Of a DNA stretch of 64,000 bases, positions 6,531 through 58,328 are shown in pieces (position 1 is the first letter of the stretch; each line of letters opens with the position of its first letter). The translations under genes and the position numbers were made by a program. Source of the stretch: Negaprion brevirostris (Eukaryota); contig JARDVH010000025.1 in assembly GCA_030324005.1 (NCBI GenBank), positions 118,553,169 to 118,617,168 on the forward strand. The letters are read 5' to 3'. The notes under the pieces are model-generated. The model had not been told where the DNA came from. It saw only the letters and a list, made by a program, of their open reading frames with translations, and searched no databases.

Positions 6531-6611
6531 TTTGTCCAATTAATCAAGTAAACCAAGCTGAATAATATTTCAACTTCAATATCCCTGGGGTAATCCCATA
6601 ACATATAAATA
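6531..6611 (+). promoter_or_regulatory. Putative proximal promoter of GPCR gene B (homeodomain site, O/E-like site, TATA box)
   Basis: CAATTAAT 6537-6544, TCCCTGGGG 6582-6590, TAATCC 6591-6596, TATAAATA 6604-6611; ATG at 6695; same spacing as upstream of genes C and E. Confidence 0.65.
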
Positions 6612-6694
6612 ATGACTTTTGGAATATATCACATCAGACTTTAATACAGAACGATAACACACAACGCAAGCTGCCAGATCTCCTCATACTGAAA

Positions 6695-6761
6695 ATGCTG
6701 GAAACGTATCATGTGGTTGCTAAAATATACTACGTGTCTCTTGCCATTATTGGTGTTCCTG
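6695..6761 (+). CDS. GPR139-like GPCR gene B, coding exon 1 (MLETYHVVAKIYYVSLAIIGVP, phase-1 donor)
   Basis: ATG at 6695, YY-x-x-L-x-x-x-G-V-P TM1 motif, donor G|GTAGGT at 6761/6762; joins in frame to 12627. Confidence 0.85.
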
Positions 6762-7324
6762 GTAGGTAAAAACTGCAGCTCTATAAATATGTTTGTGAGA
6801 CACATTCTGATTTCACTTTGTGAATTATTTTGTTGCATGGTGTTTGTAATTGACAACCATGACACAGGCACAAGAGCAAAGATATTCTTTGTTTAGTGCA
6901 CATTTCTTAAATTCTCCCTTTGAGTTAATTTTATCAATTGGTAATGAAACTAATTGTAAGTTGCAAGCTCTCAGGATGATCATGTTGCTGCATTTTGTGT
7001 ACTACCATGTGATACCCTATCAGAGTGCAACTAATGCAAACTGTCCCAAGGAAGATATTCAGGGGAGGGATGGCAAATTCACAATGACTCCAGATGATCA
7101 TCCAAACTGGAATTCCTCACTGCAAAGCTAGTATATTAAAGTCAAAATAGAATTAGGCGAATTGTGTCATGAAGCAGTATGCACTACCGATTCCATGTCA
7201 CTTTGTATTATTGGGAGTATCTGAGACTATATGTATTTAAGGTGTGCAGGTCACTAATTATTCTGTGTATTAGTGGGGCTATCTGTCAGTGTAATATTGT
7301 ACAGAGTGTGGGTCACTTGGTGTG

Positions 7325-7381
7325 GGGGGGAGGGGAGGGTGGGGGGGCCCGGGGGGGGGGGGGGGGGGGGGGGGGGGTGGG
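7325..7381. repeat. Poly-G tract
   Basis: Nearly pure G run. Confidence 0.9.
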
Positions 7382-7976
7382 CACTGAAGGCAGCGGATGC
7401 ATGAACACAACGTTCAGTTAATACTAAGAGGATCTTTGTGCCGAGTTATCTTGAGTGCAGGCCACTGACAGAAATCTTATCAGTCAATTTTATTTCAATA
7501 ACATTTCTTCTGATGATTGTTTTTTTTAAAGGAAACTGTGTGACTACATCAAATGCCTATGTGTTTCACGGAAGGAAATGAGATACAACTAGAAGTTTTG
7601 CTTTTGTTTGACAACGTTTAGTGATGAGTTTGTCAAGAGAAAAGTCTTGATACTTCTGTTTTTTCAGTTCACCTGCGACAAAGACCTGTATATAATTTAG
7701 CAGCTAGTCTTTACTGTAAGTAATTAAAATTTACCAGTGAAACATGCATTATAGATGTTTATTAATTCCTATCATTGCAATCAGGTAATTTGTTTTATTT
7801 TTCTTTGGGGTAGACGGCTCTCACAATTTGAATATGTCTTTTTTTTGCATCCTTCTTTCCCAATTTCTTAACCTTTAATGACCGATGAAGAACATAGATA
7901 CCAGCGTTCCTACTTGCGCAACTTCCCAACTTTCCCTTATTTTAGCAAATCTCTTTTCCCTCTACTCCATATTTCT

Positions 7977-7977
<1 letters not shown>

Positions 7978-8007
<30 letters not shown>
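7978..8007. repeat. (GTT)n microsatellite
   Basis: tgttgttgtcgttgttgttgttgttgttgt. Confidence 0.9.
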
Positions 8008-10960: not shown

Positions 10961-10964
10961 AATA

Positions 10965-12626: not shown

Positions 12627-13540
12627 TTAATTTAATTGGAATTGCCATCCTGTGCCGAGGAAAGTGCGGTCTCTCTCTCTGTACAACATGCTACCTGGTG
12701 GCCATGGCAACTGCGGATCTTCTCCTCATTATTACTGACGTCATATTAAATCAGATCAAATATTATTATTTCCCATTATGCTTCCTTCACATGTATGCAG
12801 TATGTAGCGTGCAAGGTGTCCTGGTCTGCGTTGCCAGAGACTGTTCTGTCTGGTTCACTGTCACTTTCTCCTTTGATCGATTTGTTGCAATTTGTTGCCA
12901 GAAGTTGAGATCCCAATATTGCACCGGCAAAACGGCGGCTGTGGTCCTAGCAACAACGGGAATTCTCCTCTGTCTAAAGAACATCCCCTGGTACTTTACA
13001 TTTCGACCATATGCAATAATCAACAATGTACTGTGGTTCTGTTATACAAGGGTAAACACCTTAACTGATCCCGGATGGCTAGCTTTTGGCTGGTTTGAAA
13101 AAATTTTAACGCCGCTATTCCCATTCATTTTAGTTCTGCTGCTCAACGCTCTGACAGTGAGACATGTTTTAGTGAGTAGCCACGTCCGGAAGGGCCTGAG
13201 GGGTCAGAATAGAGGAAAAGCGAGAGACCCAGAGATGGAGAACAGGAGAAAGTCTATGATTTTACTTTTTGCAATATGTGGCACCTTCATAGTTCTGTGG
13301 TTCGTAAATGTTATATTCTTCTTATATTCTAAAGTTAGAGGCATCGTTCATTCCACAGATTCGGAAGTTGTGTTTCAATATGTAGGATGGATGCTGCGGA
13401 ATTTAAGTTGCTGCACAAATACATTTATTTATGGAGTGACTCAGTCTAAGTTCAGAGAGCAGCTCAAGCAGGCTGTGAAATATCTGCTAACACCAATTGT
13501 CCGACTGATTAATAAATGCTTATCGATATCAAAGAATTAA
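12627..13540 (+). CDS. GPR139-like class A GPCR gene B, coding exon 2 (326 aa spliced protein)
   Basis: Polypyrimidine tract and ttacAG acceptor at 12626; open frame VNLIGIAILCRGKCGLS..AMATADLL..DCSVWFTVTFSFDRFVAICCQK..TPLFPF..DPEMENRRKSMILLF..SCCTNTFIYGVTQSKFRE; seven hydrophobic segments when exon 1 is added. Confidence 0.93.
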
Positions 13541-14442: not shown

Positions 14443-14493
<51 letters not shown>

Positions 14494-18883: not shown

Positions 18884-19390
18884 CATAGAATCCCTAAAGT
18901 GCAGAGGAGATGATTTGGTGCGTCGAATCTGCATCGACTCTCCGACAGAGCATCTTACCGTCACCCGTAAACACACGCATTTACCCAGCTATTGCCCCGA
19001 ACATATTTGGACACTAAGGGGCAACTCACCATGGCCAAAGCACTTAATGACGTCTTTGGACACGAAGAGGCAATTTAGCACGGTTAATACACCTAACCAC
19101 ATCTTTGCACATTAAGGAGCAATTTAGCATGGCCAATGCATTTAACCACATCTTTGACACTAAGTGACAATTTGTGATGGCTAATCTACCTAATCTCCAC
19201 ATTTATGGACAGTAAGGGGCAATTTAGAATGGTCAATCCACCTAGCCACATTTAAAAGGTCATCCTCCTCATCTGCACATCTTTGGACACTAAGGGGCAA
19301 TTTAGCATGGTGGATCCTCGTAACCTTTATATCTTTGGGCAGTAAGGGACAACTTAACAAGGCAAATCCAACCAACCGGCACATCTTTGT
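18884..19390 (-). repeat. SINE tail followed by a tandem array (~7 units of ~49 bp) amplified from the SINE core
   Basis: Unit catctttggacactaaggggcaatttagcatggccaatccacctaacc repeated from ~19001 to ~19390. Confidence 0.85.
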
Positions 19391-19497: not shown

Positions 19498-20417
19498 CTA
19501 GACTGGTTTTGCTTTACTGTCGAACAATCTCCTGATCAATGTCCATGGAGAGTTCAGCACCTTCTTTAGCTCTTCCCTGAATTTCCTCTGGGTCGTTGCA
19601 TAAATACATGTGTTTGTGCAGGAATTCACAAGTTTTATTATAGCTCCGGTTTCAGTGGCGATATATGCAGGCGTTGTGCGGTCCCCTCGGTAGTAAGTTG
19701 TGTTTGTCAGTCTTGTGGTTAAAAAGCTCACATTGGCTGTCAGCCACAGCAATATAAAACTGCCCGAGATAGTGAAGAGTAAAATGATGGATTTCCTTCT
19801 GCTCTCCATCTCGGAATCACTCCGATTCTCAGTGTTGTGACCCCGGAGTCCTCTACGGGCTCTGCTGGCCATCAAAACATGTCTGACTGTCAAAGAATTA
19901 AACAGGACAATGACAGTAAACGGGAGCCAAAGGCGCCAGATGGCATGAAACCAGAAGCTCACTGCACCTAAAGGTGATGAAAAAAATGCCAGATTTGCCC
20001 GGCAGCCCCACCATAATTTGTTAATGATCTGTTCAGACTCATAGGCAAAAAATACGGGGATGTTCTTTATAAGGATTAAGATATAGATCAGTGTTATAAC
20101 CAGAGCCGCAGTTCTCTGGGTGCAATATTTCGTTTTAAATTTCTGGGAGCAGATGATTATAAAACGGTCAAATGTGAAGGAGACGGTGAACCAGACGGAC
20201 AAGTCGAGGGTAACAACAGTCGTGTACAGAATGAACTTGCACACGGGAGTGTGGGACAGGAAAGAAAATGGGAAATGGTAACTGAAAATATAATACATCA
20301 TTACATTGATGATCAAGACCAATAGATCTGCCGATGCCATGTTTACCATATAGACAGTGATACATTTGGAGAGGCCACAGTTTCCTCGGAAAAGGATCAC
20401 AATCGTCATTAGGTTTG
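19498..20417 (-). CDS. GPR139-like class A GPCR gene C, coding exon 2 (329 aa spliced protein)
   Basis: Acceptor tttataacAG at 20418; ANLMTIVILFRGNCGLSKC..NMASADLL..DLSVWFTVSFTFDRFIIICSQK..DSEMESRRKSIILLF..NSCTNTCIYATTQRKFRE; uninterrupted frame to TAG. Confidence 0.93.
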
Positions 20418-21119: not shown

Positions 21120-21189
21120 CGGGAACACCAAAAGATACGAGAATCGGGTAGTAAATCTCCCTTATCTGCAGAATAGTAAGTTGTCCCAT
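21120..21189 (-). CDS. GPR139-like GPCR gene C, coding exon 1 (MGQLTILQIREIYYPILVSFGVP, phase-1 donor)
   Basis: ATG at 21189, YYP-x-L..GVP motif, donor G|GTGAGT at 21120/21119; 702-nt intron; in frame with exon 2. Confidence 0.9.
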
Positions 21190-21272: not shown

Positions 21273-21349
21273 TATTTTTATGTACAAAGTAATCCTCCAG
21301 GGAGCAGTCAGGTTTCATTAGTATACATTAGTTACATCCATTTAACACA
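21273..21349 (-). promoter_or_regulatory. Putative proximal promoter of gene C
   Basis: Sense strand: TAACTAATG (21334-21326), TAATGA (21320-21315), CTCCCTGGAGGA (O/E-like, T at 21303), CATAAAAATA (21282-21273); 93 nt to ATG. Confidence 0.65.
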
Positions 21350-21539
21350 TAGACTGGATTAGCTCATTTATTTATTTGATGCCCCAGAACAAGAGAAGCT
21401 GGTGATTTGTTTAATGGACAATGTAATGCAAACACCCCCAATATAGTATTTACTTCACAAACGGAGAGTAGAATCTGTCAGTATTGGTGCTGCCTGTTTT
21501 AATTCAACACAGCTGGAGACAATTCCGCTTAGAGTCATC

Positions 21540-22830: not shown

Positions 22831-24369
22831 TTGATTTTGATTTGACTTATTATTGTCACGTGCATTAGTATATAGTGAAAAGTATTCTTTCTTGTGCATT
22901 ATAAAGGCAAAGCATACCGTCCATAGAGAAAGAAACAAGAGAGTGCAGAAAGTAGCGTTATGGCCATAGCTCGGGAAAGGTCAACTTAATGCGAGGTTAG
23001 TGCATTCATAAATATGTTGGCAGCAGGGAAGAAACTGTTCTTGAGTCAGTTGGTATGTGACCTCAGACTTCTGTGTTTTTCCTGATGGAAGAAGGTGGAA
23101 GGGAGAATGTCCAAGATGCCTGGGATCCTTAATTATGCTGGCTGCTTTGCCAAGGCAGCGGGAAGTGTAGACAGAGTTAATGCTTGGGATGCTGGCTTGC
23201 ATGATGGATTAGATTAAATTCACAACCTTTTGTTGTTTCTTGCAGTCTTGGGCAGAACAGCAGTCATACCAAGTTGAGATACAACCAGATAGAATGCTTC
23301 CTATGGTGCATCTGTGAAATTTGGTGAGATTCATAGTTTACATGCCAAATTTCCTTAGTCTTCTGAGAAAGTAGAGGTATTGGTGGGATTTTTTAACCAT
23401 AGTGTCGGCATGGGAGGACTCGGACAGGTTGTTGGTGATCTGGACACCGAAAAGCTTGACGCGCTTGACCCTTTCTACATTGTCCCCATTGATGAAGACA
23501 GGGGCATTTTCTCCTCTACGCTTCCTGAAGTCAATGACGATCTTCTTCATTTTGCTGACATTAAGGGAGGAATTATTATTCTTGCACCAGTTCATCAGAT
23601 TCCCTATCTCATTCTTGTACTCTGTCTTGTCATTGTTGGAGATCCGACCCACTACAGAGGTGTCATCAGCAAACTTGAAAATTGGATTGGAAGGGGATTT
23701 GGCCGCAGAGTCATAGGTATATAAGGAGTATGGTAGGGGGCTGAGAACACAGCCTTGTGGGGCACCAGTGTTGAGGATGACTGTGGAGGAAGTGTTGTTG
23801 TCTATCCTTCCTGATTGTGGTCTGAGAGTTCGGAAGTTCAGGATCCAGCTGCAGAGGGAGGAGACAAAGTCTAGGCCACAGATGTTAAAGATGAGTTTCA
23901 TAGGAATATTGGTGTTGAAGGCCGAGCTGTAGTCAATAAATAGGAGTCTGACATAGGTGTCTTTGTTATCTAGGTGTTCCAGGGTTGAGTGGAGGGCCAG
24001 GAAAATGGCGTCTGCTGTGCACCTGTTGCGGCTGTAGGCAAACCGTAGTGGATCCAGACAATCAGATAATTGATTCATGCCATGACTAACCTTTCAAAGC
24101 ACTTCACAATGATGGATGTCAGAGCCACCGGCTGATAGTCATCAAGGCACAATGCTTGGCTTTTCTTTGGTACCAGGATGATGGTCATCTTATTGAAGCA
24201 GATAGGACCTCAGATTGTTATAAAGAGAGATCAAAGATGTCTGTGAATACCCCCACCAGCTGATCCGCACAGGATCTAAGTGCACGTCCAGGTATTCAAT
24301 CCAGGCCAGTTGTTTTCCCTGGGTTGACCTTCAAGAAAGCTGCTTTGACATCTGCAATAGTCACCTCAG
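22830..24369 (-). mobile_element. Rex1/Babar-clade non-LTR retrotransposon, RT region and 3' end
   Basis: ORF 23338-24078: [51 protein letters not shown]; (aaatc)n-like 3' tail at ~22830. Confidence 0.9.
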
Positions 24370-24469
24370 NNNNNNNNNNNNNNNNNNNNNNNNNNNNNNN
24401 NNNNNNNNNNNNNNNNNNNNNNNNNNNNNNNNNNNNNNNNNNNNNNNNNNNNNNNNNNNNNNNNNNNNN

Positions 24470-25140
24470 TCAGACTTCTGTATCTTTTCCCGATGGAAGA
24501 AGGTGGAAGAGAATATGTCTGGGATGCGTGGTGTCCTTAATTGTGCTAGCTGCTTTGCTGAGTCAGTGGTAATTGAGTCAATGGATGGAAGGATGGTTTT
24601 GGTGATGGATTGTGCTACATTATTGACATTTTGGAGTTTCTTGCGGTCTTGGGCAGACTAAGAGCCGTAACAAACTGTGATGCATCCAGAAAGATTGCTT
24701 TCAATGGCTCATCTGGAAAAGTTGGTGAGAGTAGTAGCTGTTGTGCCAATTTTCCTTAGTCTCCTGAGGGTGTAGAGGCTTTCTTATCTATAGTGTCGGC
24801 ATGTCTGGGGCCAGGAAAGATTGTGTGTGATCTGGGCACATAAACGCTTGAAGCTTTCGACCGTTTTACTTCATCTCTGTTAATGTAGACAGAGACATGT
24901 TCTCCACTGTCCTTCTGAGCACGATGACAACCTCCTTCGTTTTGTTGACATTGAAAGACAGAAAATTTCCATCGCACCAGTTCACCAGATTCTCTATCTT
25001 CTTTTCCTGTATTCTGTCTCTTCGTTGTCTGAGATCCGACCCACAATTGTGGTGTCATCAGCAAACTTGAAAATCGGGGCAAAGGAAAATTTGGCCACAC
25101 GTGTATAAGGAGTATAGTAAAGGGCTGTGGGTCCAGCCTC
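24470..25140 (-). mobile_element. Second, diverged Rex1/Babar fragment
   Basis: Collinear with 23064-23760 (gatggaagaaggtggaag, gtgtcatcagcaaacttgaaaat) but with many substitutions and indels. Confidence 0.85.
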
Positions 25141-25829
25141 GGAAAGTGCTCTGTACAGTCATTCCAGGTTTGGGAGCTGACGGTAGAATGTTAACATTTC
25201 TATCACGGAGGCTGTGAACAGTGTCGGCCCAGTTAAACCATATTAGCTTAGTGCAAAGGCATGGAACTTTCTCTAGTACACTACCAATTAATTGTCCTTA
25301 AAATCACGCCCAAACTAATTGCAATATAATACCCATTCAAAAACAAAACCTAAACATTAGAGATGTTAGAAATCCTGAGCAGGTCAGGAAGCATCTGTGA
25401 AGACAAACTGAATGAACGGTTTGCGCTGCTGACTTTGCCTCAGAACTGAGTAAGAATATGCATACAACAGTCTATAAACCAAAGAAGGGCGGGATGGTAC
25501 AGGATGCACAAAATTGAACCTCTGTGCGGGAGGAAGGAAGGGTAGAAAATTATTCATGATGCACAAAAATCTAGAGTTGTAATGTTTACGGTAAAGGAAA
25601 AAAAATCCCGATAAATTTGTAAGCGGCTGCATAGCAACTATCCGAATGCAACATTCGGGATGAAAAATAAAGAGTAGTGGAAAAATCACACCAATAAAAA
25701 AAAACAACCTGGAGAATGTTATGAAGAATAAATCATTGTAACAGAGTCCGAATGAAGCATCTGAATTAGCGTGATTGTGAGCTGTGAGGAGGATGCATAG
25801 ATGGTTCATTGTGATTTGGACAGACTGAG

Positions 25830-27000
25830 AGTGTAGCAACTGCATGACAGGGGTAGTATAAAATGGATCAATGTGAGGTTATCCGCATTGGTAGCAATAA
25901 TAAGATCACAGATTATCATTTATATGGATGAAAATTGAGAGAGATGGAAACTCAGTGAGACATGATGTTATTGTGCATCAGTCACTAGAAGTAAGCACGG
26001 AGGTACAGCAGGCAGGAAAGAAGGCAAATGGCATTTCAGCCTTCATAGCGAAAGGATTTGAGACGTTTTACTGCAATCTCATACAGCATTGGTGAGGCCA
26101 CACCTGAAGTATTGTGCACAGTTTTCAGGTTCTTATCTGAGAATCGATGTTCTTGCCATAGAAGGAGTGCAGCTAATGTTTATCAGACTGATTACTGCCC
26201 AGTGTCGCTGCGCTGAGAGGTGGCAAGTGGAGTTCAATGCGGAAAAGTGTGAAGTGAATCACTTTGGATGGAGTAACAGGAATAAAGTGCACTGGGCTAA
26301 TGGTAAGATATTTGGTAGTGTGGATGAGCAGAGAAATCTCGCTGTCCATGTGCAAAGATCCCTGAAAGTTGGCGCTCAGGTTGATAGGGTTGTTAAGAAG
26401 GCATGTTAGCTTTTATTGGTAGAGGGATTGAGTTTCGGAACCGTGAGGTCATGTTGCACTGTACAAAGCTCTGGTGCTGCGTTCTTGGAGTGTTGTGTAC
26501 AGTTCTGGTCGCCACATTTTCAGAACGATGTGGAAGCATTGGAAAGGGTGCAGAGAAGAATTACCAGGATGTTGCTGGGTATGGTGGCAAGGTCTGATGA
26601 GGAAAGGCTGACGGACTTGAGGCTGATTTTGTTAGAGAGAAGGTTAAGAGCTGACTTAATAGAGGCATATAAGACTATAAGAGGATTAGATACGGAGGAC
26701 AATGAGAGCCTGTTTCCTCAGATGGAGATGGCTAGCACAAGGGCACATAGCTTGAAATGGAGGGGTGATAGGTATAGGATGTCAGAGGCACGGTCTTTAC
26801 TCAGAGTAGTAAGGGTGTAGAATGCCTTGCCTGCAACTGTAGTGGACTCACCAACTTTGAGGGCATTAAAATGGTCATTGGATAAACATATGGAGGATAT
26901 TGGAGTACTGTAGGTTAGATGGGCTTTAGATTGTTTTCACAGGTCGATGCAACATGGAGGGCCGAAGGGCCGGTACTGCACTGTAAAGTTCTATGTTCTA
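25830..27000 (+). mobile_element. Two nested/adjacent CR1 LINE 3' fragments (junction ~26200)
   Basis: VRPHLKYCAQF then restart at WAERWQVEFNAEKCEV..LECCVQFWSP..LERVQRRITRM..RLRADLIEAYK; 3' tail gggccgaagggcc...ttctatgttcta. Confidence 0.85.
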
Positions 27001-28980: not shown

Positions 28981-31399
28981 TATGCCATATCCCTCAAAAC
29001 GTTTAGATTTAAGTTGATTCTGCTAAAAAAAAATGTTATCCCACTGGCTTGTTGCACAGAATGGAGATCGAGGAAATAATCACAAAAAAATTGCGACAAA
29101 TACTTTGTAGAAAAATATCTCTCAGAAAAAAAATGGCAATTTGGTTGTCCTGTTCACAAGAGGAATGCAGTCCACGGCATTTTCCAGCGACAACCATGCC
29201 TTGTTTAATGGCATTCACAGTGAATTAATTCACGTTACTAAGCATATCAATTACGCTTATCCAANNNNNNNNNNNNNNNNNNNNNNNNNNNNNNNNNNNN
29301 NNNNNNNCCACCTGCTGCACCTGCAGGCTGGGTTTTTGCGACTCATGCACAAGGACCCCGAGGTCCCTCTGCACCGTCGCCTGCAGCAGTTTTTCGCCAC
29401 GTAAGGAATATCATCTGCTAAATTTTCATCCCTCCCAGCAGCTGAGGCAGTTTACAAAATTCTGCTTCAGGATCAATAGTCCAGGTCGTTTAGTTAGAAG
29501 AAAATTCATTGCTCAGAGAGCGGATGTAGCGACCGATCAGTTTTCGCAACTGCACAATAGGAATGTTTTGAAATCTGTGAGGTCCAGGCTGTTGTAGCTG
29601 TAGGTTTGTCTGGTAGATTGCTTTTAGATTTGACTTTTACATGTGTTGTCTGCAGATGTTCGGCGAAGTACGTGATGTGATCTGAAGTCATTACCAAGAG
29701 TGTCAGATCGGCAGTCCTTGACCACGATCCCAATTCATTTACTATTAGATAATTACGTCACAGAATGGACCCCGGACTCATCAGCCATCAACTTCTATTA
29801 GACGTGGGTATAACTATTAACAAAACAAACAAAAACATGGAAAATGACTATAATAATGCACCCCTTCACCCTACGCATATTTTCAAAGAGATACCCAGAG
29901 TTTCAAAGTAACAGAAGTTACAATTTATAGTCTCATATGTTATTTGTAAACACACAGTCGACGTCGTTGAAAAGGCAAAGTGAGGTTTGAAACGAAATGG
30001 CTGATGCCACTCAAAACAACCTCAATGTGAGTTTTCATCAAATCCTACAGCAAACCTGTCACATGGTCTCACTGGAACTCTAGTTTCCACGCGACCATTT
30101 CCAAAATTGGCTGTTTTCAAGTACACGCATTTCAAATAATAGAGAAAAGCAAAATAATTTGATGAATTGAGGGCACAGATATGAAGGTGACAGGATGGGG
30201 AACTGAACAATTCTGCCGATGCCGTTGTCAGATCACATTGAAAGTGAGGTACATCGAAAGGATACACAATTTTCTTTGCTCAATCAATTGCTTGGGTGGG
30301 GAGGTGAGGGGAGCGGTGTGGAAAATGTTCGCTGCTGAAGTGTCAAGAGGATAGAAAATTAATCATCTGTGGCCATATGCATTAAATACTGAGCGAAAAA
30401 CAACAGTCACAGGAGCAAGATAGACCCCCAAAGCTTCAAACATATATCGAAGAACAAACGTAAAATATGAATCCCAGGAAACAGAAACATAGCAACGTAG
30501 CCGTGGAACATTCCAACTATGGGAATATCAACTCTGCTAGTTGGGAGAAAAAGGGTGGAAGATGATAGAACTCCGAATGTGCCGTCAGGAGAGGAAATTA
30601 AAGCGGCCATTTGCAGCAAGGCATACAAGGCAGGCTATGGTGCTGGTCTTCGTTTTTTTTTCAAATGAAGCAAAGCAGTCAAAAAGATAGAACATTTTGT
30701 TAGTCGTGTCCGTAAATCAGTTAGTGATAGCATAATTACAGGAATGGACGATGAAAAACGAATAGTTCAAATTCTACTTAGTTCAAAGCCAATTCTGCTT
30801 AATGGAAGAACGGTTCAGCAAACGTGGACAGAAAATATTACTTGGATTCAGGCCAGCGTCAGATCAGTCTGAAATATTCAAGTGGGAAATGAGACTGAGA
30901 GGGGGCGCATATGGAGCGGCCACTCCATTCGTTACACACCTAATCTCAATGGATTTACAGAGTGAGACAAGTAGAAGAAGTTTTCTGATGGAGAACAAAA
31001 ATTCAATTANNNNNNNNNNAATTACGTAAAACGTTGGTGAGAGCATAGGACTGGATACGTGATCTCCGAAAGGACACTATTAAAGTAAATAGACGTCAGG
31101 AAACAGATTTGTTAAAATAAATAAACGAAAGAACAAATAAGTTCTGTCAATATTTTACAAGTAAGAGAATCAGTAAGTAGTATCGCCTAGCAAAAAAGGA
31201 CAATAAAAGTAACCAAAAGTAGAGGGAGATTGTTCTGATTCGTCGTGAATAATGCCATCCGCCTCACAAGAGTGTGTACGTGCTTGTTTGTGTGTGTGTG
31301 TGTGTGTTTATGTTTCGGGTAGTCAGGTCTGCCATGGATGTTGTAAATGAACTTGTCTCTAAAATGTTGGGTGCAACGCGGGCAGTGTTAAAGGGACAA

Positions 31400-32420
31400 T
31401 TATGCTACAGTAAAGAGGACCAATAACCAGGGCGAGCTGAAATGTATTTCTGGCCATTAAAATATGCAAGGCAGGAAATAGCTCAGGGTCTGTCGAGCAT
31501 TTTCCAAGTCTGACTAGATAGAGGTGAGGGTCTAGGCAATTGGATGTTTGCAAGTGTTGCAGCTTAATTCAAATTGGGAGCCTTGGACAGAGAGGATAAT
31601 GAAAGGCCTGTTCGACTGACCTTGGTAGTTGGAAAACTATCAGCACCAATTTGAAGTGACAGCAGACCCCTTCAATTGAGAGTTCTGAGCTAAATAAGGA
31701 CAGTCAGCAAGGCTTTTTTTAAAGGTAAGTTCTTGTGTGTATAGATTGTACTAATTAAATGTGCAAATAGCTAGTAGGACTTGGTGAAGGTAATGCAGTT
31801 GATGTGATGGTCGAAACGGATTTTGTTGAGTTCTTTGGTGATTTCCAGTATCAAAGTCTGGATTCAAATCGTAAGTCCATATATCCCCGGGGAATGCCGT
31901 TAGCTGATGACAAAAGTAGCTTAATGAACAAATGCATGGTTACTTTTCGTTGTACTTTTTTTTGAACAAGAAAGCTGTTTGTAATGAGATTAATATTAGC
32001 TCAGCACCAGATTGCTTGATTTACTCTCAGGTTGCACTAAGGATTAGTAGTTTGAATGAAATTTAAGGGGGGGAAGTCAAGTATTTTGCGGACGTCGCAG
32101 TCATTGGTCCCATGTTTGATAGCGAAGTGGATGCTGTAAACTTCATGAAGATGTCAATGTACGGATCATGTACGCAGCCAAATGGCAAATGGTAATCAAC
32201 GCAAAGCATTGTCAGTTGTTAAATTTAGAGAGTTCAAAAAGGCAAAATTATTCACTATCGGCATGTAAATACTGTGAGATAAAAGGCAAGTGAACAACAT
32301 CGAACGGGAAGTTGATAGATCGCTGAGTCTCAAACATTGCCAAGTTTGAAACAGAGGTTGCGCAGTGCGAAGTCTTTGCAAAGTTTACGACATGGCTTAC
32401 ATACAGTAATATACTGGGGC
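31400..32420 (+). mobile_element. Very old CR1-like LINE RT fragment
   Basis: Remnants gacagtcagcaaggctttt..aaaggtaagttcttg (SQ.GF.KGKSC), aagtattttgcggacg (K.FAD), aaatggcaaatgg (KWQM). Confidence 0.55.
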
Positions 32421-32680: not shown

Positions 32681-32886
32681 GCCACCATACTGTATCACCT
32701 TTGAAAATCTCAATATGTCCAGCATTGAAGTAATACTGTTCAGCTAGCTTGACAGATAGCGATCTGTCAGCATGTTGAGGAGGCAGGAGTCTTCTGCCAC
32801 TATGGTAACAGAGGTAGGAAGCGTGTGAAACTATAATGATGTTGAACGTAGGAAAGTTTATTGTTGAATAATTATGCGCCTTACAA

Positions 32887-33737
32887 CTAACCTGCTGACG
32901 ACTGTCACCCTGAAACCTGAAGAATGTGGTATTTCCAAATATGTCGTTTGTTTCTTCGTGGCGATGGCAATGGCGGATCCATTGATCATTGTATTCGACC
33001 TGATATTGAGACCTATGCCGATTGTTTATAAGAGGGAGTTTCTGGTTCTGGACTTCACTGATGTGTAAAGTATCCACTGTTGTTCTCTTTTATACAGTGG
33101 CTGACTGTTCTACTTCGTTCACCCTGACTTTCATCCACGACATTTGTTCCCAGAAATTAATAAATAAGTGCTGCATCAAAAGAAGTTGGGTCTAATTTTG
33201 GAAAGAACGACTGTGCTGAGCATTAAAAAAAATCTGATACTTAATGTTCACAGATCGCTATTGTCTGCAAAGCCTCCCCTGGTTTGTTATGTAAAGTTTA
33301 CTGTTCAGAAATCTATGGCCTATGTAACAATCGAGTTCCTTCAGCACATTCTAACCCCTTGTGTTCCATTTGTATTGATGCTGCTTCTCAGTGTTTTCAC
33401 GGTCAGACATATTTTAATGACCAACAGAGTCCAGAGGTGACACTTGATTCTTAGCCGCCTCAGTAATTTTACTCTTTTCTTTTATCTCGGCGAACTTCAT
33501 TCTGTTATGGGCAATGTTAAGGTTCTATTCTATTTGGAAGGGGATGTTAAACGTGGGATACTATTCTGCTTGCCTACATGGATTTGCTGTAGAATTGGGC
33601 TTCTTGTTGTAACTGAAGCATTGAGACAAGAATACCCCATTTATACCATAATCCACAGCAATCTCCGAGAGCAATTGAAAATTCCTCAAATATCCTGTTA
33701 CTTGTATCATTCAATTATTTCAATGACGAGTAATTAA
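32887..33737 (+). pseudogene. Heavily decayed GPR139-like GPCR pseudogene (locus D), exon 2
   Basis: TNLLTTVTLKPEECGISKYVVCFFVAMAMADPLIIVFDLILRPMPIVY; ADCS.SFTLTF; TIEFLQHILTPCVPFVLMLLLSVFTVRHILMTNRVQR; SNLREQLK; multiple stops, frameshifts, deletions; acceptor ttacAG changed to ttacAA. Confidence 0.88.
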
Positions 33738-41359: not shown

Positions 41360-42261
41360 TCAGCCCCTAATGCATTGTAGAACTTTAGTAATGGGGTATT
41401 TGAGCATACTCTTCAAATGCTGTCTGAATTTATTCTGTGTCACTGCGTAAATAACTGTGTTTGTACAACAACTCAGAAGCTGCATCATGAAGGCCAAGTC
41501 ATAAACGAAATCATCTATCCAGATAGTCTCAAACCCCAACCAATCCATCCGGCTGTGTATCGAACAAACCATTATCAAAGACCATAACATGAAGAAATTT
41601 CCTGAGATAACAAATAGTAAAATGATGGATTTTCTTCGGCTTTCCATCTCTTGATCCCTGGTGCTCTCCCCACTGATGTGAGCTTGGAGCCTCCTGCGCG
41701 CTCTGCTGTTCACAACAATGTGTCGAACGGTGAAAATATTCAACAGCAAAATCAGGAGAAATGCAACTCCTGGGGTTATAATGTGATGGAGAAACTCGAT
41801 TCCTGTCCACACAGGCGAATGCAGAACATCGAATGAATAATCACAAAACAAGGGGTCATTCCACAGCATATACCCGCCATTTAACATAAAGTACCAGAAC
41901 AAGTTCTTTAGACAGCTCAGCACAGAGACGGTTCCCAGAACGATGACCACGGNNNNNNNNNNNNNNNNNNNNNNNNNNNNNNNNNNNNNNNNNNTGGCCA
42001 CACACCTATCAAAGGTGAAGGCAACGGTAAACCAGACAGAACAGTCAGCGGCTGCATAAAGCAGCACAGCATGGATATTACATACGCTGCTGGTTAGCAG
42101 GAACTGAAAACTCTCTTCATATACAATCGGAATGTGTCTCAAAATCACGTCGAGTATAATGACCAGTAGATCTGCTCCTGCCATCGCTATCAGGTAATGA
42201 GTGACACATTTGGAGAGGCCACAGTTTTTGCTCTTGAGGATCACAATCGTGACTATGTTCA
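41360..42261 (-). CDS. GPR139-like class A GPCR gene E, coding exon 2 (42-nt N gap at 41953-41994)
   Basis: Acceptor ttccttccactcctcacAG at 42262; VNIVTIVILKSKNCGLSKC..AMAGADLL..DCSVWFTVAFTFDRCVA..DQEMESRRKSIILLF..SCCTNTVIYAVTQNKFRQ; gap length matches the missing ICL2 length of paralogues. Confidence 0.88.
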
Positions 42262-50379: not shown

Positions 50380-51770
50380 CGCAGAACACACACCCCCAAT
50401 CTCGTACGCAAACTGACTTTTTCTCTCACACTCAATGACCTGTCTCATACACACGGGCATCACTCCCTCAAAAATATGCAGTTACCTCGATGTCTCACAC
50501 AAACTCAAGCTTCTTGGCATAAAATCATCACTTTTTCACACACACGTTTATTCACACACGCACACCCGTCCTAACACAATCAGAAACGCACTAACAAACT
50601 ACATAGAAATATATACACGCATACACACACACGGACGCATCTCTCTCTCACACACACGCATCTCTCACACACAACGTACTCATCCTGACATGCAAAAACT
50701 CATTATCACACACATTGTGACACACACACGCGCATTGATCCTCACATTGACATACTCTTCCTCACACGCACTTATCTTCATCAACACACCCATTCTCACA
50801 CATACAAACATTCATCCTCTCACATGCATTCACTCATCCTCACAAACAAACCTTCATCCTCACACAGGCTCATCATCAGCACTCATCCAAAACATGCGTA
50901 GAAACATCCTCACACACACGTACACACTTATCCTCACAGAGAAATTCTTCCACACATGCTAACACTCATCCACACACGCACATTCACCCACAGTCATCCT
51001 GTCATTTTCCCTCTTTCATACCGACAGTCTTCCTCGCATGCACACATGCACTCATCGTCAAAATCACACAGCACACCAATGCACATTTTCAACTGTGCAT
51101 GTTTATCCCCATATGCACAAACTCCCGATTAGACACTTTCAGAAGCACAAAACCACACATGTTTTCTCTCTCAAACATACACACTTACAGTCATATGCAA
51201 ACACATATATCTTCACACAGGTACGCTCATCCCTGCAAGTACACAGACAATCCTGTCTCATGCAAGTGCACTTAGCGTCACACAAAAACTCTCATTCTCT
51301 CTCTCTCTCTCTCACACACACACTCATCGACACGCACTCATCCTCACACTTACACACACATCGTCACACACAGGCACATTCATCCTCACTGATTAAACCC
51401 TCCTCTCATACAAACACCCATCGTTACAGAGACAAACACTCATCCATCTGTGCTTGCAGATATACAATCGTCCTCAATCTTTCTCCATCAACACACACAC
51501 ACACACACACGCACACACACAACTTCCTCACACTCACGTTCATTTATCATCTAAGAATCTCAAAGTCGCAATCATTGTTCTGAGACACAACCTCATCCAC
51601 ACACAGTGCATTCATCTTCATAAACATTCATCTCATACATGCATACTCATCCTCTCACACAGGCATACACACACACATTATCACACAGACACACACCCTC
51701 AGATTGTCTCGCTCGCACACATTCCATCCTCACACAGAAATCACGTTCAGACACATACACAAATACTAAA
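50380..51770. repeat. Long CA-rich low-complexity tract (ctcatcctcacaca-like units)
   Basis: Degenerate (CA)n and catcctcaca repeats; source of the spurious His/Thr-rich ORFs. Confidence 0.85.
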
Positions 51771-51771
51771 C

Positions 51772-52021
51772 CGGTAGACAGAGGGGAACCTGTGGATGTG
51801 GTGTTTCTGCGGTAGACAGAGGGGAACCGGTGGATGTGGGGTTTCTCGATTTTCAAAAGGTGTTTGACAAGGTGCTGCACAAAAGGTTGCTTCAGAAGGA
51901 TAAGGGGCATGGAGTTGGGGGTAAGGTATTAGCGTGGATAGAGGATTGGTTGTCTAATAGGAGACAGAGAGTTGGTATCAATGGGTGCTATTCTGATTGG
52001 CAGTTGGTGACTAGTGGAGTG
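51772..52021 (+). mobile_element. CR1 LINE RT fragment (runs into N gap), 38-bp tandem duplication at its 5' end
   Basis: VDRGEPVDVGFLDFQKVFDKVLHKRLL..WIEDWLSNRRQRVGING..TSGVLQGSVL. Confidence 0.9.
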
Positions 52022-53679
52022 CTGCAGGGATCGGTGCTGGGNNNNNNNNNNNNNNNNNNNNNNNNNNNNNNNNNNNNNNNNNNNNNNNNNNNNNNNNNNN
52101 NNNNNNNNNNNNNNNNNNNNNNNNNNNNNNNNNNNNNNNNNCTTATTCTGGCGCATAACCATCTTCCAAAACACACGACCAATTCTCTCACTCTCACACA
52201 TAAAAAATATATCCTCACTCACAAACACACAAAGGAAGGGGAGTGGGGTGGGGTGTGGGGACGACGTGAAGTAAAAACGGGTGAGGGGAAATGGGGAGGG
52301 AGAAAGGTGTTTGGATAAGGGTGAAGGAAGTGGTTGGATGTTACAGGCAACCTTAATCTTCCCTGCATACATCAAACGCACAAAAATAACATGTGTAAAA
52401 CTTCAAACAAAAAGCACAATGTTCAAGCTGTGGTGGAAATTGACTCATGATTTTCAATCTGCTTTTGATCCTGTAATGCCTATCAAAGCAATTGTTCACG
52501 TCACCTTGCAGGAGACGTGTATCTGACGTCTGAAGGGACAGACGTTCCGAAAGCATTTAAACTAGCCATGTTTCATAAGAATCAATGGCACACTCAGGGA
52601 GCCTTAAAATTGAGATAAACGTTATCGAAGACTTGCATGCAATACCTTAAGTAATACACTTCCATGAAATATTTGAATCAGCGAAATGACACGAGGAGAA
52701 ATATTGCGTTAGGGACACTCTTAAAATATTAACTCAAGTGACGGAAGTTTTGGTACCATTGTTGGTCAGTGCTTCAAATAACGGCAGGTTGCATAACAGT
52801 ACATAAGAGGCACACAACAGTGCATGTGGCTCTCTTTCAGCGCACATGTGCATGTACCAGGACTTCAGTGTTGCACAACCGACGTAAGGTAGCATTCCAA
52901 TCACAAGTAGTAGACCAGAGGCACGCACACATGGAAACACACACATGCGTCCTGAAACGCACACAACGGTACACACACACACAGACGCACACACTCGTTC
53001 ACAAACACACACACATAGTGATCTTCATAGCACCGCAGTTCCGAGAGTTGTTCAAGAATATGCTGAATTGTATCTTCATTCTATCAGAGCAAAGAATGTA
53101 ACAACCCAACAGGAGAAAGTCTGCATGTGGTCGAGTGATGTGATTCTATCTTTCTTTACAAGCAAAGAGTTCTGTGGATTTGATGAGAGCATGTGAAGTG
53201 ATCAGCTCTGCCATTTTATTGTTGTTATCAATAGGTTGTTACATGGAATAGTCATGCCATTTGGGGCATCCAGGAAAATAATGGCTGTGGTGAAAGTCCT
53301 CTTTCCCCTTTAGAACAAATGCAAGTTTTAGAGCCAAGTTTTCATGTTGAGAAATGCCCTTCTCAATTCATGGTTGGCGAGCAAATGTCTTAACAATCAC
53401 ATGTTTACCTGTCTTGCCTGTACTGCATATTCCAATTGTTGCCAATAATGGTACAGACCACGTTGCTCCAGAATGTTCCAAGTCTTTGTAATTTGCCAAG
53501 CCACCTGCATCTTGTGGAATAGATTAAGCAGAGAAAATTCCTTTGACGTCAAGTTTATCAGAACGACTTGAATGTTTGTGTTGGGGATAGGATTAGTAGG
53601 TTTGAGAATGGCAGAAGGACTGGCCGGGTCGTTAGAGTGAGGTTGTGTGTCTTGAGCTACTAGAAGACATACGCAATGG

Positions 53680-54485: not shown

Positions 54486-54764
54486 TTCCTCAGCTACTTA
54501 TCTGCCTGTAAACTGCTTGAGACCCTTCACAGCAAGCAATCAAATTGTCTGTTCTGTTCCAGAAGCTTTCCTATGTAGATTGCAAATGCCAACTGACAAT
54601 GCCGCGTCACCAAAGTTTTAAGTGAGTACTAAAAATTTATCTGGAATTCTGCCGAGAAAGATTTCCACCATATTATCCCCAAATCCACTCAATGTCACCT
54701 CCTCCAGACATTTCAGGTGCGGTAGCTGTGCTGGGGATGAGGAAGCTTTTCACATCATAACAAT

Positions 54765-55062
54765 TTTTTGTTAGTAGTGTTACAAGTATGCTTACACTAA
54801 CACTGCAATGAAGTTACTCTGATAATGCTACAGTCGGCACACTCTGGTGCCTGTTTGGATAAACGGAGGGATAATTTAGCATGGCCACATCTAACAAGCA
54901 CAACTTTTGAACTGTGGGGGGAAGCCGGAACACCCGGAGGAAACCCACGCAAACATGGGGGAAACGTACAAACTCCACACTGATAGTGATCCAAGCTGTG
55001 AATCTAACCCGGGTCCCTGGTGCTGTGAGGCAGCAGTGCTTACCGCTGTGCCACGGTGCCGC
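54765..55062 (-). mobile_element. HE1-type SINE
   Basis: cacccggaggaaacccacgca, cccgggtccctggtgctgtgaggcagcagtgct..ctgtgccac. Confidence 0.85.
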
Positions 55063-57902
55063 CACACTGAATGTTCCTTTCCAACGAATGTCTGGAGACA
55101 TTTGCAATTTTATTGCGTGTATTTCATTGAGAGCAGTTCCATTTCATATTTTTTTCTCTGCTCTATGTTCTTTTCCCAGGGATGCACAGCGTGTTATGGT
55201 TCAACTGCTGCACTACCCTTAACTCTGTGAAAGGAGTTTTTTGGTCTGCCACCGGACTTCTGGCCACCCACTGAAAAGAGCTGGACTAGCAACTTCCAGG
55301 ATCCTGGATTACCTGATGAGGGGCGAATTCAGGCGAAGCACAGAGGCCGCAGAGTGGCAGCTCAGAACGTTCACCAGTTGGTGTTCAAGCGCAACATAGT
55401 CAGGGCCTGGAAACTTTGTCGAGGCCCTCAGGCTGCAGACCCAGTATATGATGTATCTTGTAAATGTTAACTTGTTACAACTATATTGTGCGAACTTCAA
55501 GTGGATTCTGCATGATGATAGGTTGAATGTTCCACTCTTCTGCAATGGGCAATTTGAAATGATGGTAATGTAATATTGCAAATTTAATGAATAATGTATT
55601 AATTTCGTAACAAGAAAAAAATGAAACGGGATCTGGGGCGCTTTTGTCCATAAAGATTAGAAAATTCATTAGGGTTTNNNNNNNNNNNNNNNNNNNNNNN
55701 NNNNNNNNNNNNNNNNNNNNNNNNNNNTGATTGAAGAAAAGCACAGTAGAATGGCTTGAATCGATTTGTTTGTAATGCACAGTTTTGGAGTAATGGGCAA
55801 AGCCAAGTAGCACACTGGCGAAAATGATCGGAAATCTTGAGATATCGGTACCTGGAATTCACTGCCTATAAATATGATGAAAGTAAATTCACGAATAACT
55901 TTCAAAAGATAATATTGCAAATAGCTAAAATGTAAACTCGTAACAGTCGGTCGAAGGGAAGTGGTAACACAGGGACAAATTACATAGCTCTTGCAAAGAG
56001 GCAGTGCGGACAAAATGGGTTAAGTATTCTTATTATTTTCGTCCTCAGTCTCTGATTCAAAATTGAGGGCAGGGAGTGAAACTCGAGATACAGTCAATGA
56101 GAGAGCCAAAGAGCCAGAGAGAGGGAAACATAAATTACAAGACTGATAAGTCGCCACAAGCTCAAATATTTGCATTTCATCCAAATCTGAGGCTGATAAT
56201 GAGTCACAATCATTACGCAATGAATTGTGGAGTGCCAGGCATACTGTAACTTGGACAGAGCGGGAAGCATAGTTCATGGTAGATTTGGACAAGGCTAATT
56301 GATATTTTCACAGTTCACATGACAGTACTAGCGGAAATAGCTGCACTACAAGATTTGCTACCTTTCCTGCTTCAGATTCTACCTCAATCCATTTGCTGCA
56401 GTGGAAGCTTCGACTGAGGTCAGGAGAAACACGTAGGCTACAATGTATACCCAGACTTCTGTCCCCATCGGTAAGCACCTCATTCTCGGGGGCACAGAAG
56501 GACTATTTCATCAATCTGTGTTCAAACTGATTAATAGACTTGCTGAGCATCTGCCCGGTGTGAGCGAAGGTGACTTCCTCCATTATGAAGCAGCTGGATT
56601 CTTTATCAGGATAACGCATTTGCATTCCTGGTACTGCTAACCCTCAGTGTCCATTCTTTTTGTCCATTAGCAATGAAATGATGCTATTGTGTACATATAT
56701 GTTTTGCAGTCAGCATTTGGGCACTCAGGTGCAAAAGATTGACCAGAAATTCAATCTGTCTCCGTTGCAAGTGACAATCAGAACCTCTCTATCAATATAA
56801 CTTCTGTCACTAAGGGGGAAGAGCCTCTGAGCTGGAGTATTTGGGGGTAGTCCAAAGGGCAGATTGATATACTAAATTGATATACTGAAATGCATAGATC
56901 ATCTCTTACTTGAATAGTTGAATGCTATGTTTGTTAAAATGTTTACCTCGTTTTTTAAAAAAAAATTCAAATAGATGATTTATGTCCAAGGGGATGTTGT
57001 CATATGTCTCAGGTGAAACTAAAGGGAAACTTGGCATCCAAGTTGAAGGGATGTTGAACTCTGCAGAACAGGCCCTAAAAGACATTTATCTACAACCTCT
57101 CACGGTTACAGGCTTCCAGGATATATTCATTGATGCCTGGTTGCTGTAATATGAAACAAAATGATATCTTCTGTGTGGTCAAACACAAGATTCTGCTTAA
57201 TGCATTGAGAGTTTATTTTTTAGTTCCTGAATCTTTCTGCATTTACAGGCTGGCCCACGTTTCATTTCGACAATCCTCCTAGCTGCATAAACTCATTCCA
57301 TTTCATGCTTTATGTACTTGGTAACATCTGTGACCTTTACTTTCGGGAGCCTAAGATCAAAGCCACCTAGAGGCACAGAGTGAAAAACGAAACCTGAAAA
57401 AAGGGGTCAGGTAAATATTTACAGTGAGTAGATCTCAGGGACAAATAACATTGTGGTGAGCTAAATAAAAGTCCGAGGTCATGGAGAGTTTGGCGATTAA
57501 CACGATCTGGACTCAGAAATCAGGCCTGAGTTCACAGCATTTGTGAACATTCCAGTTTGCAGAGGTGGTGAACAGACTGGCTCAGTTTCAGAGATTGGCC
57601 AGATAAAGGTGTAGGATTAACAGTTAGGTTACAGAGACCGTGGCTTTCCAATAATCTAATTGATAAGAGAAGTAATGCACTGGATGATGATTCACAGACA
57701 GAAAAGCACCAGGAAAATCACCAGAAACAACACCAAGCAAGTGCAGTGTGAAAATAAAAGTCTAACACAATTAGTAATATTCAATCGAGTTAATGTGGAC
57801 TCAACAAAATCAAGGAGAGTAGCAACAGAGCAAAGCAATTGACAGTAACATAATGCATTAAAACATACTTTATAAAATTCAGAACTTGATGAAGAGACTT
57901 AC

Positions 57903-58104
57903 CAGGCGCAGCAACAATAGCCAAGGTTGGATAGTAAAAAAACTGTATCGCTAACAATGCATAATAGACCCGATCAGCAAATGTTGTCCACCGATCATCT
58001 GCAGAAATTTTGTTAATTACCGAATACAAACTTCTGTCCATCCTTGTAGCGTTCCAACTTATTTTTCTCAAATTTCGATTCATCATTCTATAATTCCAAT
58101 CCAT
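57903..58104 (-). CDS. GPR139-like GPCR coding exon 1 with long N-terminus (67 aa), most likely exon 1 of gene E
   Basis: MDWNYRM...ALLAIQFFYYPTLAIVAAP, donor G|GTAAGT at 57903/57902, phase 1, compatible with acceptor at 42262 (15.6-kb intron, 367 aa); N gaps in between could hide another exon 2. Confidence 0.8.
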
Positions 58105-58250
58105 TGTTCACAGATAGTTTTATAATATTCCAATCTATTGCTCTCAATACTGATCAATCCTCTTCCCCCTTCTAAAGCTGCTGAAGCTCGCCAGTGCCTG
58201 AGTTGATGCTCACATGGGCTTTATGGGGCAACAATTAGGAACAAGTCCCT

Positions 58251-58328
58251 TATTCATAGAAAAATTAACCCCCCAGTGATACAATTAAGACCCGTTGAGA
58301 CTGGCATTAGTTATAGTCACTGAACAAA
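58251..58328 (-). promoter_or_regulatory. Putative proximal promoter of gene E
   Basis: Sense strand: TAACTAATG (58313-58305), TAATTG (58287-58282), TCACTGGGGGG (O/E-like, T at 58279), TATGAATA (58258-58251); alignable with 21273-21349. Confidence 0.6.

Follow-up and report, generated by a model that had tools for sequence, protein, structure and literature searches.

A 64,000-nt stretch of Negaprion brevirostris DNA (the window), which carries three class A GPCR genes labelled 'probable GPR139' behind what the initial annotation called an olfactory-receptor-like promoter, raises the question of whether sharks possess olfactory receptors outside the recognised families. Among vertebrates, cartilaginous fish have the smallest known olfactory repertoires (mean 43.8, range 20-62; PMC10869828), a finding put down to sensitivity gained at the expense of discrimination (PMC10869828, PMC10116579), and a 'paucity' of GPCRs is noted in one genome paper (PMC8455134). 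In catshark, labelled-cell densities summed over all tested probes amount to about 13 per mm, while the neuronal layer is an 'almost continuous' monolayer (PMC10116579 Table 1); many of these olfactory neurons may lack an assigned receptor, an estimate that is sensitive to in situ efficiency. If the promoters at this locus are driven by EBF and homeodomain factors, the 'probable GPR139' family becomes a candidate for the missing repertoire and would represent one more independent origin of olfactory receptors in vertebrates on the same regulatory code.

Gene structures and promoter elements

Receptor genes B (plus strand), C and E (both minus strand) have two coding exons each, and two of the five copies in the window, A and D (both plus strand), are pseudogenes (Table 1). 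The description of three intact genes holds for the open frames of B and C but is uncertain for E, whose exon 2 contains a 42-N gap (frame kept) and whose 15.6-kb intron crosses three assembly gaps. Exon-1 HMMs in six frames and blastn found neither exon 1 nor a promoter for A or D in this window, and a weak HMM match at 30483 (E 1.6), tried as an exon-1 candidate, was rejected as it comes with neither an exon end nor the module.

All motif positions given in the initial annotation were confirmed. Relative to the O/E-like site, the box at +21/22 has 0, 1 and 1 mismatches to TATAAAWR in B, C and E, a T(T/G)TGT(T/C) block starts at -51, -46 and -49, and TAACTAATG starts at -31 in C and -34 in E. 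The ATGs of B and C lie 113 and 114 nt past their O/E sites (91 and 93 nt from the TATA), and in E a decayed copy of the N-terminal repeat, its homology judged by eye and by a weak HMM match (E 8), begins 121 nt past the site. The 8-mer TAACTAAT occurs upstream of B, C and E, which account for three of its six copies in 128 kb (a post hoc observation), and TAATGCAAA, with three copies in 128 kb, is common to the B and C upstream regions at about -130. The promoter regions have a GC content of 35-41% with 2-5 CpG per 320 nt, but most of the window is already at 36-45% GC. No interspersed repeat lies within 240 nt of the three O/E sites, and Rfam returned zero matches. By eye only, TAACTAATG resembles an H/P core.

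Table 1. Receptor genes, pseudogenes and promoter elements, numbered from the first letter of the window
Feature	Position	Strand	Description
Pseudogene A	5435..6274	+	exon-2 remnant, frame breaks
Gene B upstream elements TAACTAAT and TAATGCAAA	6432..6453	+	TAACTAAT at -150
Gene B core promoter module	6531..6611	+	TTTGTC 6531, CAATTAAT 6537, TAATCC 6591; start predicted near 6632
Gene B O/E-like site TCCCTGGGGT	6582-6591	+	1 mismatch to V$NOLF core; TCCCTGGGG at 6582
Gene B TATA box TATAAATA	6604-6611	+	+22 from O/E-like site; ATG 6695
Gene B coding exon 1	6695..6761	+	22 codons + 1 nt; N-terminus and first half of TM1; ends at phase-1 GT donor; exon-1 HMM from relatives, E 8e-7
Gene B coding exon 2	12627..13540	+	remainder of 7TM receptor; open frame
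Gene C coding exon 2	19498..20417	-	open frame
Gene C coding exon 1	21120..21189	-	phase-1 GT donor
Gene C core promoter module	21273..21361	-	TAATCC 21361, TGTGTT 21349, TAACTAATG 21334, TAATGA 21320; pair of TAATG spaced 10 nt apart; start predicted near 21254
Gene C O/E-like site TCCCTGGAGG	21303-21294	-	1 mismatch; TCCCTGGAG at 21303
Gene C TATA-like box CATAAAAATA	21282	-	+21 from O/E-like site; ATG 21189
Pseudogene D	32880..33723	+	exon-2 remnant; nearest to E
Gene E coding exon 2	41360..42261	-	frame open through 42-N gap at 41953-41994
Gene E coding exon 1	57903..58104	-	long E-subfamily-type N-terminus; exon-1 HMM E 4e-22; candidate starts 58104, 58086/58083 or 58041
Decayed, frameshifted copy of E-subfamily N-terminal repeat	58105..58158	-	in presumed 5' UTR
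Gene E alternative TATA candidate CATAAAG	58225	-	at +54
Gene E core promoter module	58251..58328	-	TTTGTT 58328, TAACTAATG 58313, TAATTG 58287 (2 nt ahead of O/E-like site); start predicted near 58230
Gene E O/E-like site TCACTGGGGG	58279-58270	-	2 mismatches; TCACTGGGG at 58279
Gene E TATA-like box TATGAATA	58258	-	+21 from O/E-like site

Joint arrangement and common descent of the promoters

Taken singly, the sites could be short degenerate motifs picked post hoc from pure chance: O/E-like sites are not enriched window-wide (38 with at most one mismatch vs 32.8 expected), shuffles match the single O/E site of E, C and B in 81%, 10% and 6% of cases, and the O/E and TATA of gene E alone are weak (free-spacing p 0.16). 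The joint evidence makes the chance explanation negligible. With the O/E (TCCCYNGRGA) and TATA (TATAAAWR) consensus of MatBase, as given in Table 1 of PMC3247239, and the O/E-TATA spacing left free from 12 to 60 in three 300-nt upstream regions, B, C and E together have 6 summed mismatches at a common spacing of 21-22 nt, a score reached by 6/200,000 random window triples (p≈3e-5) and by 0/200,000 dinucleotide-shuffle triples; with 500 and 1000 nt upstream, p was 4e-5 and 8e-5. The claim of an O/E-TATA pair at fixed spacing in all three genes is thus borne out, and three of the four O/E+TATA composites in 128 kb are the B, C and E promoters. Moreover, a motif-blind search of the window with the C upstream region recovered the E promoter at the homologous offset (E 0.25). 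For B and C, chance is effectively refuted. TAAT cores in -70..+20 are only mildly enriched (4, 4 and 3 in B, C and E vs a mean of 1.03; p 0.04, 0.04 and 0.12). All three promoters appear to place an O/E site no more than 200 bp upstream of the predicted start with TAAT sites nearby, as OR/VR-type promoters do.

Motif-blind local alignment was colinear for C-E (equalled by 0/800 controls) and for B-C (p 0.014), and not colinear for B-E (p 0.33). Similarity is restricted to -70..+33 around the O/E site, with distal, mid and UTR blocks at background. The upstream regions of C-E and B-C thus align better than the initial annotation supposed. Judged from their sequences, the three promoters are homologous, one ancestral module having apparently been retained in three deep subfamilies, and since they come from one ancestor they amount to one observation under constraint rather than three independent cases. 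Fourfold-degenerate sites are identical at 22/48, 14/47 and 23/42 positions vs about 26% expected, so that saturation is incomplete and part of the promoter similarity may be passive. The fixed spacing is real, but shared descent is a better reading of it than an OR hallmark, as in mouse OR promoters the O/E, homeodomain and TATA elements are enriched near the start (within 200 bp), TATA being called in 39%, and show no fixed spacing (PMC3247239).

Relatives and expansion of the receptor family

The B, C and E proteins share 40-45% identity and belong to separate subfamilies. Because the B clade includes rays (SH-aLRT 99, quick tree without true GPR139), the B/E divergence is older than the shark-ray split. 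Family clusters at 90% identity number 2215 and 1309; named shark or ray proteins account for 236 of the 240 clusters listed, and the horn shark has at least 122 (hand count). Entropy in the B subfamily is 1.7 bits in the pocket vs 0.21 intracellularly, and among divergent members 2.6 vs 0.73 bits, while the single-copy vertebrate relative shows 0.72 vs 0.46 bits (p 0.15). The E-subfamily pocket is conserved (0.60 bits), unlike that of a broadly tuned repertoire. With this exception, the family looks like a multigene chemoreceptor family: clustered, lineage-expanded, shaped by birth and death, and variable in its pocket.

Pfam gave 7tm_1 as the sole domain match, and an AlphaFold model (pLDDT 78) searched with Foldseek indicated a generic class A GPCR without discriminating between receptor types. 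No OR-type protein occurs among the 60 best solved-structure profile matches, and the coding region is interrupted by a phase-1 intron in TM1. OR genes typically have an intronless coding region. By profile and gene structure, B, C and E are not ORs. The best solved relative is human GPR139 (PDB 7VUG; 70 bits, E 1.8e-18), and since another single-copy vertebrate gene, coelacanth P0353, scores higher with the same profile (193 bits), the shark genes do not appear to be GPR139/GPR142 orthologues either. The P0353 group comprises coelacanth, sturgeon, teleosts, amphibians, turtles, squamates and sharks at about one cluster per species, with mammals and birds absent among the 120 entries listed.

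The family, with more than 2000 90%-identity clusters in shark and ray annotations, may be undescribed: nothing on it was found in the openly searchable literature on GPR139/GPR142-like or novel GPCR families in sharks, so that an earlier description may still exist elsewhere. The accessible part of the whale-shark paper supplements has one GPR142 orthogroup line and no GPR139.

Factor identity, site of expression and known systems

Among 12 motifs compared (O/E and 11 rivals), the EBF motif fits best (1, 1 and 2 mismatches in B, C and E), with an NF-kB-like consensus as runner-up (1, 2 and 3). Permuted motifs fit equally well in 10/4000 cases (0.25%), which, over the ~177 matrix families back-calculated from the Bonferroni threshold in PMC3247239, leads one to expect about 0.4 chance matches; the EBF label is significant solely as a prior hypothesis and fails a full look-elsewhere correction. 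The mouse enhancer matrices viewed in PMC6744719 are mostly built on few sites and were left out of the comparison. Of the promoter likeness first proposed, a conserved core with O/E-like, TAAT and TATA-like elements survives, but its fixed spacing is less likely to be an OR feature. The perfect palindrome TCCCCGGGGA at 31884, considered as the promoter of D or as an enhancer, is likely due to chance: TATA (at most one mismatch) is absent at the module spacing, its similarity to the promoters is under the 99th background percentile, and it sits in an apparent decayed LINE (by eye; weak tblastn match, E 4.6).

Our preferred reading, to which we assign a probability of about 0.5, is that an EBF, homeodomain and TATA core promoter drives B, C and E in olfactory neurons and that the family consists of unrecognised chemoreceptors. 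The three genes would have inherited one core promoter of ~100 bp, retained by selection since the subfamilies split. In it, homeodomain TAAT sites would accompany an EBF (O/E) site and a TATA-like box, located about 50 and about 28 nt ahead of the predicted start. Binding of Lhx2/Emx-type and EBF factors to the module would activate the gene in olfactory sensory neurons, which in sharks are microvillous, probably with one or few family members expressed per cell, and this elasmobranch expansion of a GPR139/142-related class A GPCR branch would provide a chemoreceptor repertoire for water-soluble cues. The proposal that an olfactory-neuron transcriptional programme may drive these receptors thus gains from the O/E motif being the best fit of the 12, together with TAAT and TATA-like elements, and from a chemoreceptor-like family, but it draws on three homologous promoters.

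A real EBF and homeodomain promoter might instead have been inherited from a neuronal ancestor and serve neurons or sensory cells elsewhere, be it in habenula or striatum (as for GPR139), in the ampullae or lateral line, in taste or solitary chemosensory cells or in the gut, which we regard as less likely. EBF factors are active in brain neurons and B cells, Lhx factors are likewise used in brain, and the TAATGCAAA common to B and C, which we take to be POU-like, would suit such cells. True GPR139, the nearest solved relative, is a habenula receptor, high in medial habenula and also present in nucleus accumbens (PMC12287315), and shark OR genes are expressed outside the nose too (PMC11979771). 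Against the olfactory reading, the catshark top-50 brain and nose list is without GPCRs, though known V2Rs are likewise missing from it (PMC11979771). On the other hand, a receptor of an internal ligand would not be expected to come in hundreds of clustered copies with pseudogenes and a variable pocket, an argument that counts against brain and not against non-nasal chemosensory cells.

It is more doubtful still that the block binds a non-EBF factor or is in part passively left over from duplication or gene conversion, with the OR likeness as a labelling coincidence. Homologous promoters, unsaturated synonymous sites, the expected chance matches, the NF-kB-like runner-up and the final A of the O/E palindrome, missing from all three sites, would fit such an origin, yet the core is kept while flanks and UTRs are at background, the letters conserved in the three sites are the TCCC-YR-GRG core, and within each gene's 300-nt upstream region no other match beats the site. 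Expression driven by EBF1 in B-lineage or other immune cells, with the family as expanded immune-sensing receptors, is improbable. EBF1 is a B-cell factor, immunoglobulin promoters typically combine a TATA box with an octamer-like site, and TAATGCAAA in B and C is presumably octamer-like. Some shark OR genes moreover peak in spleen (PMC11979771). However, the exact octamer is absent, no octamer lies at a fixed position in all three genes, several TAAT sites are found instead, and profiles do not single out chemokine or formyl-peptide receptors as relatives.

Extending the olfactory reading, sharks and rays may possess an olfactory receptor family that has gone unrecognised, with >100 genes in some species and possibly the largest they have. 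Its origin would be separate from those of OR, TAAR, V1R and V2R and lie in a GPR139-related single-copy gene, and it would have acquired an EBF/homeodomain promoter before the shark-ray split, a proposal we hold tentatively, at slightly less than even odds. If true, large neuron numbers would no longer stand against tiny known repertoires, and the V2R-only view of the shark nose would be overturned.

GPR139 is not known to be expanded. GPR139/GPR142 resemble the shark receptors as best solved relative, source of the automatic label and bearers of a short N-terminus, but are distant from them. The P0353 group is the top-scoring named full-length relative outside the expansion, with a similar N-terminus and TM1, but has about one cluster per species and a conserved pocket. 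Possibly as in the Lhx2/Ebf composite of Greek Island enhancers (PMC5608512), TAAT adjoins the O/E-like site in B and, across a 2 nt gap, in E; unlike these intergenic enhancers, the shark elements are promoters, and the side and spacing of TAAT vary among B, C and E. Mouse V1R promoters also contain O/E-like sites, in a non-OR family of TRPC2-type neurons, conserved among paralogues (PMC3247230); their homology is described within subfamilies, whereas that of the shark promoters spans deep subfamilies, and the V1R CNTCTGG motif is unmatched in the latter (2 mismatches each). Mouse OR proximal promoters, 78% of 314 with a conserved O/E site (PMC3247239), differ in that the shark genes are non-OR, their spacing is fixed via shared descent and their start, bound factors and site of expression are putative; both systems have O/E-like and TAAT elements, and perhaps a TATA box, in a short, apparently AT-rich and CpG-poor stretch before clustered GPCR genes.

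Genes and their upstream regions

Judged by its proteins, the window is elasmobranch DNA, and it holds a single class A GPCR family in five copies, with open frames in B, C and E and broken ones in A and D. In the complete genes, coding exon 1 is short, ends in TM1 and is followed by a phase-1 intron. Profiles of the N-terminal regions of related proteins (32/120 and 86/120 models passing the filter) recovered exon 1 of B, C and E and gave no convincing match to a further exon 1; therefore, the regions singled out by the initial annotation truly lie upstream of the first coding exons. The integrity and exon pairing of gene E are only likely, because its exon 2 holds a 42-N gap and its intron crosses three gaps.

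Coordinates of genes, repeats and short elements in the window
Feature	Position	Strand	Remark
Gene B coding exons	6695-6761, 12627-13540	+	open frame
Gene C coding exons	21189-21120, 20417-19498	-	open frame
Gene E coding exons	about 58104-57903, 42261-41360	-	open frame
Gene E N-terminal repeat region	57903-58158	-	includes one decayed repeat in leader
Ordinary shark repeats	19001-19251, 23338-25190, 26062-26820, 51770-52041		49-nt tandem array, SINE copies (presumably tRNA-type), LINE reverse-transcriptase fragments
TCCCCGGGGA	31884-31893		sole perfect EBF palindrome in window; lies 1 kb upstream of exon 2 of pseudogene D
TAATGCAAA	6445-6453	+	about 130 nt upstream of O/E in B
TAATGCAAA	21424-21432	+	about 130 nt upstream of O/E in C, reversed
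TAACTAATG, third copy	1396-1404	+	4 kb upstream of pseudogene A
(ATCAC..)CAGACTTT	6647-6654	+	leader of B
(ATCAC..)CAGACTTT	about 21240-21228	-	leader of C

Every motif named in that annotation is present at its position in all three genes, and the named O/E (EBF)-like site is the best match to the annotation's own consensus in each 300-nt region, with 2, 2 and 3 mismatches in B, C and E (background 7%, 7% and 44%). Against the MatBase core (PMC3247239) the mismatches number 1, 1 and 2, the E site being tied best in its region. When this core was combined with TATAAAWR in a joint test, the spacing left free from 12 to 60, the claimed common O/E-TATA spacing of 21-22 nt re-emerged with 6 mismatches in total, a result stable to lengthening of the upstream regions and rarely matched by controls (6 of 200,000 random triples from 1500 window pieces, none of 200,000 shuffle triples); chance is a most improbable account of it. 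By a post hoc count, the composite at the observed spacing occurs four times in 128 kb, three of them at the promoters of B, C and E. O/E-like sites are not enriched across the whole window, TAAT enrichment at the promoters is mild, and the gene E site alone is unremarkable (equalled by 81% of shuffles; E composite p 0.16, free spacing).

Descent of the module and identity of the O/E-like site

In motif-blind alignment the upstream regions of C and E are colinear over about 200 nt, with 0/800 controls as good; B-C reaches p 0.014 and B-E is not significant. Anchored-block alignment gave signal at -70..-1 from the O/E site (p 0.01, 0.13 and 0.002) and in the O/E-TATA block, where it is circular since the anchor lies there; distal, mid and UTR blocks showed background-level similarity only. 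On these alignments the predicted promoters of B, C and E are one module, not three separate cases: the sequence signal is solid, but its base is a single ancestral module shared by three genes. The longer leader of gene E is accounted for by its N-terminal repeat, one decayed copy of which begins 121 nt past the O/E site, close to the corresponding distances in B (113) and C (114).

The three proteins are 40-45% identical, each in a separate subfamily, and the B clade takes in rays in a quick IQ-TREE tree (midpoint root; 59 rows picked out of 388 proteins, together with the window genes). That a 100-bp block has persisted so long between decaying flanks suggests selection on it. Fourfold sites of the B/C/E pairs are 46, 30 and 55% identical versus about 26% expected, and decay is therefore incomplete; some of the similarity may be passive. 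That the block is a passive residue or serves a factor other than EBF is an unlikely reading. EBF is the best fit among 12 motifs scored on the three sites (EBF and 11 rivals), and 10 of 4000 permuted O/E cores fitted as well. This match is significant as a prior hypothesis, but not once corrected for about 177 families, and the palindrome's final A is absent from all three sites. We consider a functional EBF site in the module quite probable.

The sequence around the TCCCCGGGGA palindrome looks by eye like decayed CR1 reverse transcriptase, with no TATA at module spacing from it. TAATGCAAA, which we take to be POU/octamer-like, has three copies in the window; neither an O/E site nor an exon 1 was found around the TAACTAATG copy near pseudogene A. 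In both B and C leaders, AAA directly precedes the ATG.

The receptor family and its pocket

Searches returned 2215 clusters for B exon 2 and 1309 for E exon 2. Named shark or ray proteins, almost all labelled 'probable GPR139', make up 236 of the 240 matches listed, and at least 122 (65 + 57, counted by hand with partial models) come from horn shark. Clustering at 50% leaves 137 representatives that reach E 1e-30. Of the proteins with solved structures, human GPR139 comes closest yet scores only 70 bits; no odorant receptor (OR) is among the top 60 solved-structure matches, and atlas look-alikes outside the family are FMRFamide-receptor/Srw-type clusters (leads only). Family exon 1 is missing from 64/120 B-type and 26/120 E-type public models listed (P0001-P0240; regular-expression test). 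Annotation often skips this exon, which is consistent with little transcript support and would distort expression counts. In the E subfamily (P0121-P0240) the N-termini contain repeats of about 14 residues, which vary in number and bear WNVT-type N-glycosylation sequons.

Set apart from the expansion is the P0353 group (193 bits), with about one cluster per species among 120 listed of 145; these come from sharks, coelacanth, ray-finned fishes, amphibians, turtles and squamates, and none of them is from a mammal or bird. The models (P0353, P0389-P0506) represent a conserved single-copy orphan GPCR that sharks share with bony fishes, amphibians and reptiles and that is wrongly annotated as GPR139. 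Two carry TMEM183A isoform names (zebra shark, tree frog), which suggests that the gene adjoins TMEM183A.

Entropy was compared between 26 pocket and 26 intracellular positions (motif-anchor numbering, rows outside length limits dropped). It was 1.7 versus 0.21 in B-type proteins (n=90), 0.60 versus 0.20 in E-type (n=109), 2.6 versus 0.73 in divergent members (n=61) and 0.72 versus 0.46 in the single-copy relative (n=93). This is the pattern of a putative sensory repertoire, except in the E subfamily, which retains a charged pocket. Its nearly invariant, charged or polar TM2-TM7 pocket (D2.57, R2.61, H3.28, D3.37, E5.39, H5.42, E7.36) suggests a single shared ligand class. D3.37 is common throughout the expansion.

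Proposed activity and comparison with known promoters

In the most likely reading, to which we give roughly even odds (about 0.5), homeodomain and EBF factors would bind the module, TBP would fix the start about 28 nt beyond the TATA-like box, and the gene would be chosen sparsely in olfactory neurons. Activity in other neurons or sensory cells is clearly less probable. The top-50 nose list contains no GPCR, and shark ORs are expressed elsewhere (PMC11979771). GPR139, activated by Trp/Phe and dynorphin, is a habenula receptor (PMC12287315). Immune-cell expression is improbable. Expression data that bear on the biological claim probably exist already.

Work on shark olfaction describes an exclusively microvillous neuron population in which V2Rs dominate and labelled cells occur at low density (PMC10116579), a mean olfactory repertoire of 43.8 in cartilaginous fishes (PMC10869828) and a paucity of shark GPCRs (PMC8455134). 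Mouse OR promoters carry O/E sites in 78% of 314 cases, homeodomain sites and TATA (39%) also being enriched (PMC3247239); O/E-like sites occur in V1R promoters too (PMC3247230), and adjacent Lhx2/Ebf sites in OR enhancers (PMC5608512). B, C and E fall outside the OR genes; their module resembles OR and vomeronasal receptor promoters on sequence criteria and would work like one, binding and expression being predictions. The promoter type is already known; what is new is its presence on an apparently undescribed, expanded receptor family.
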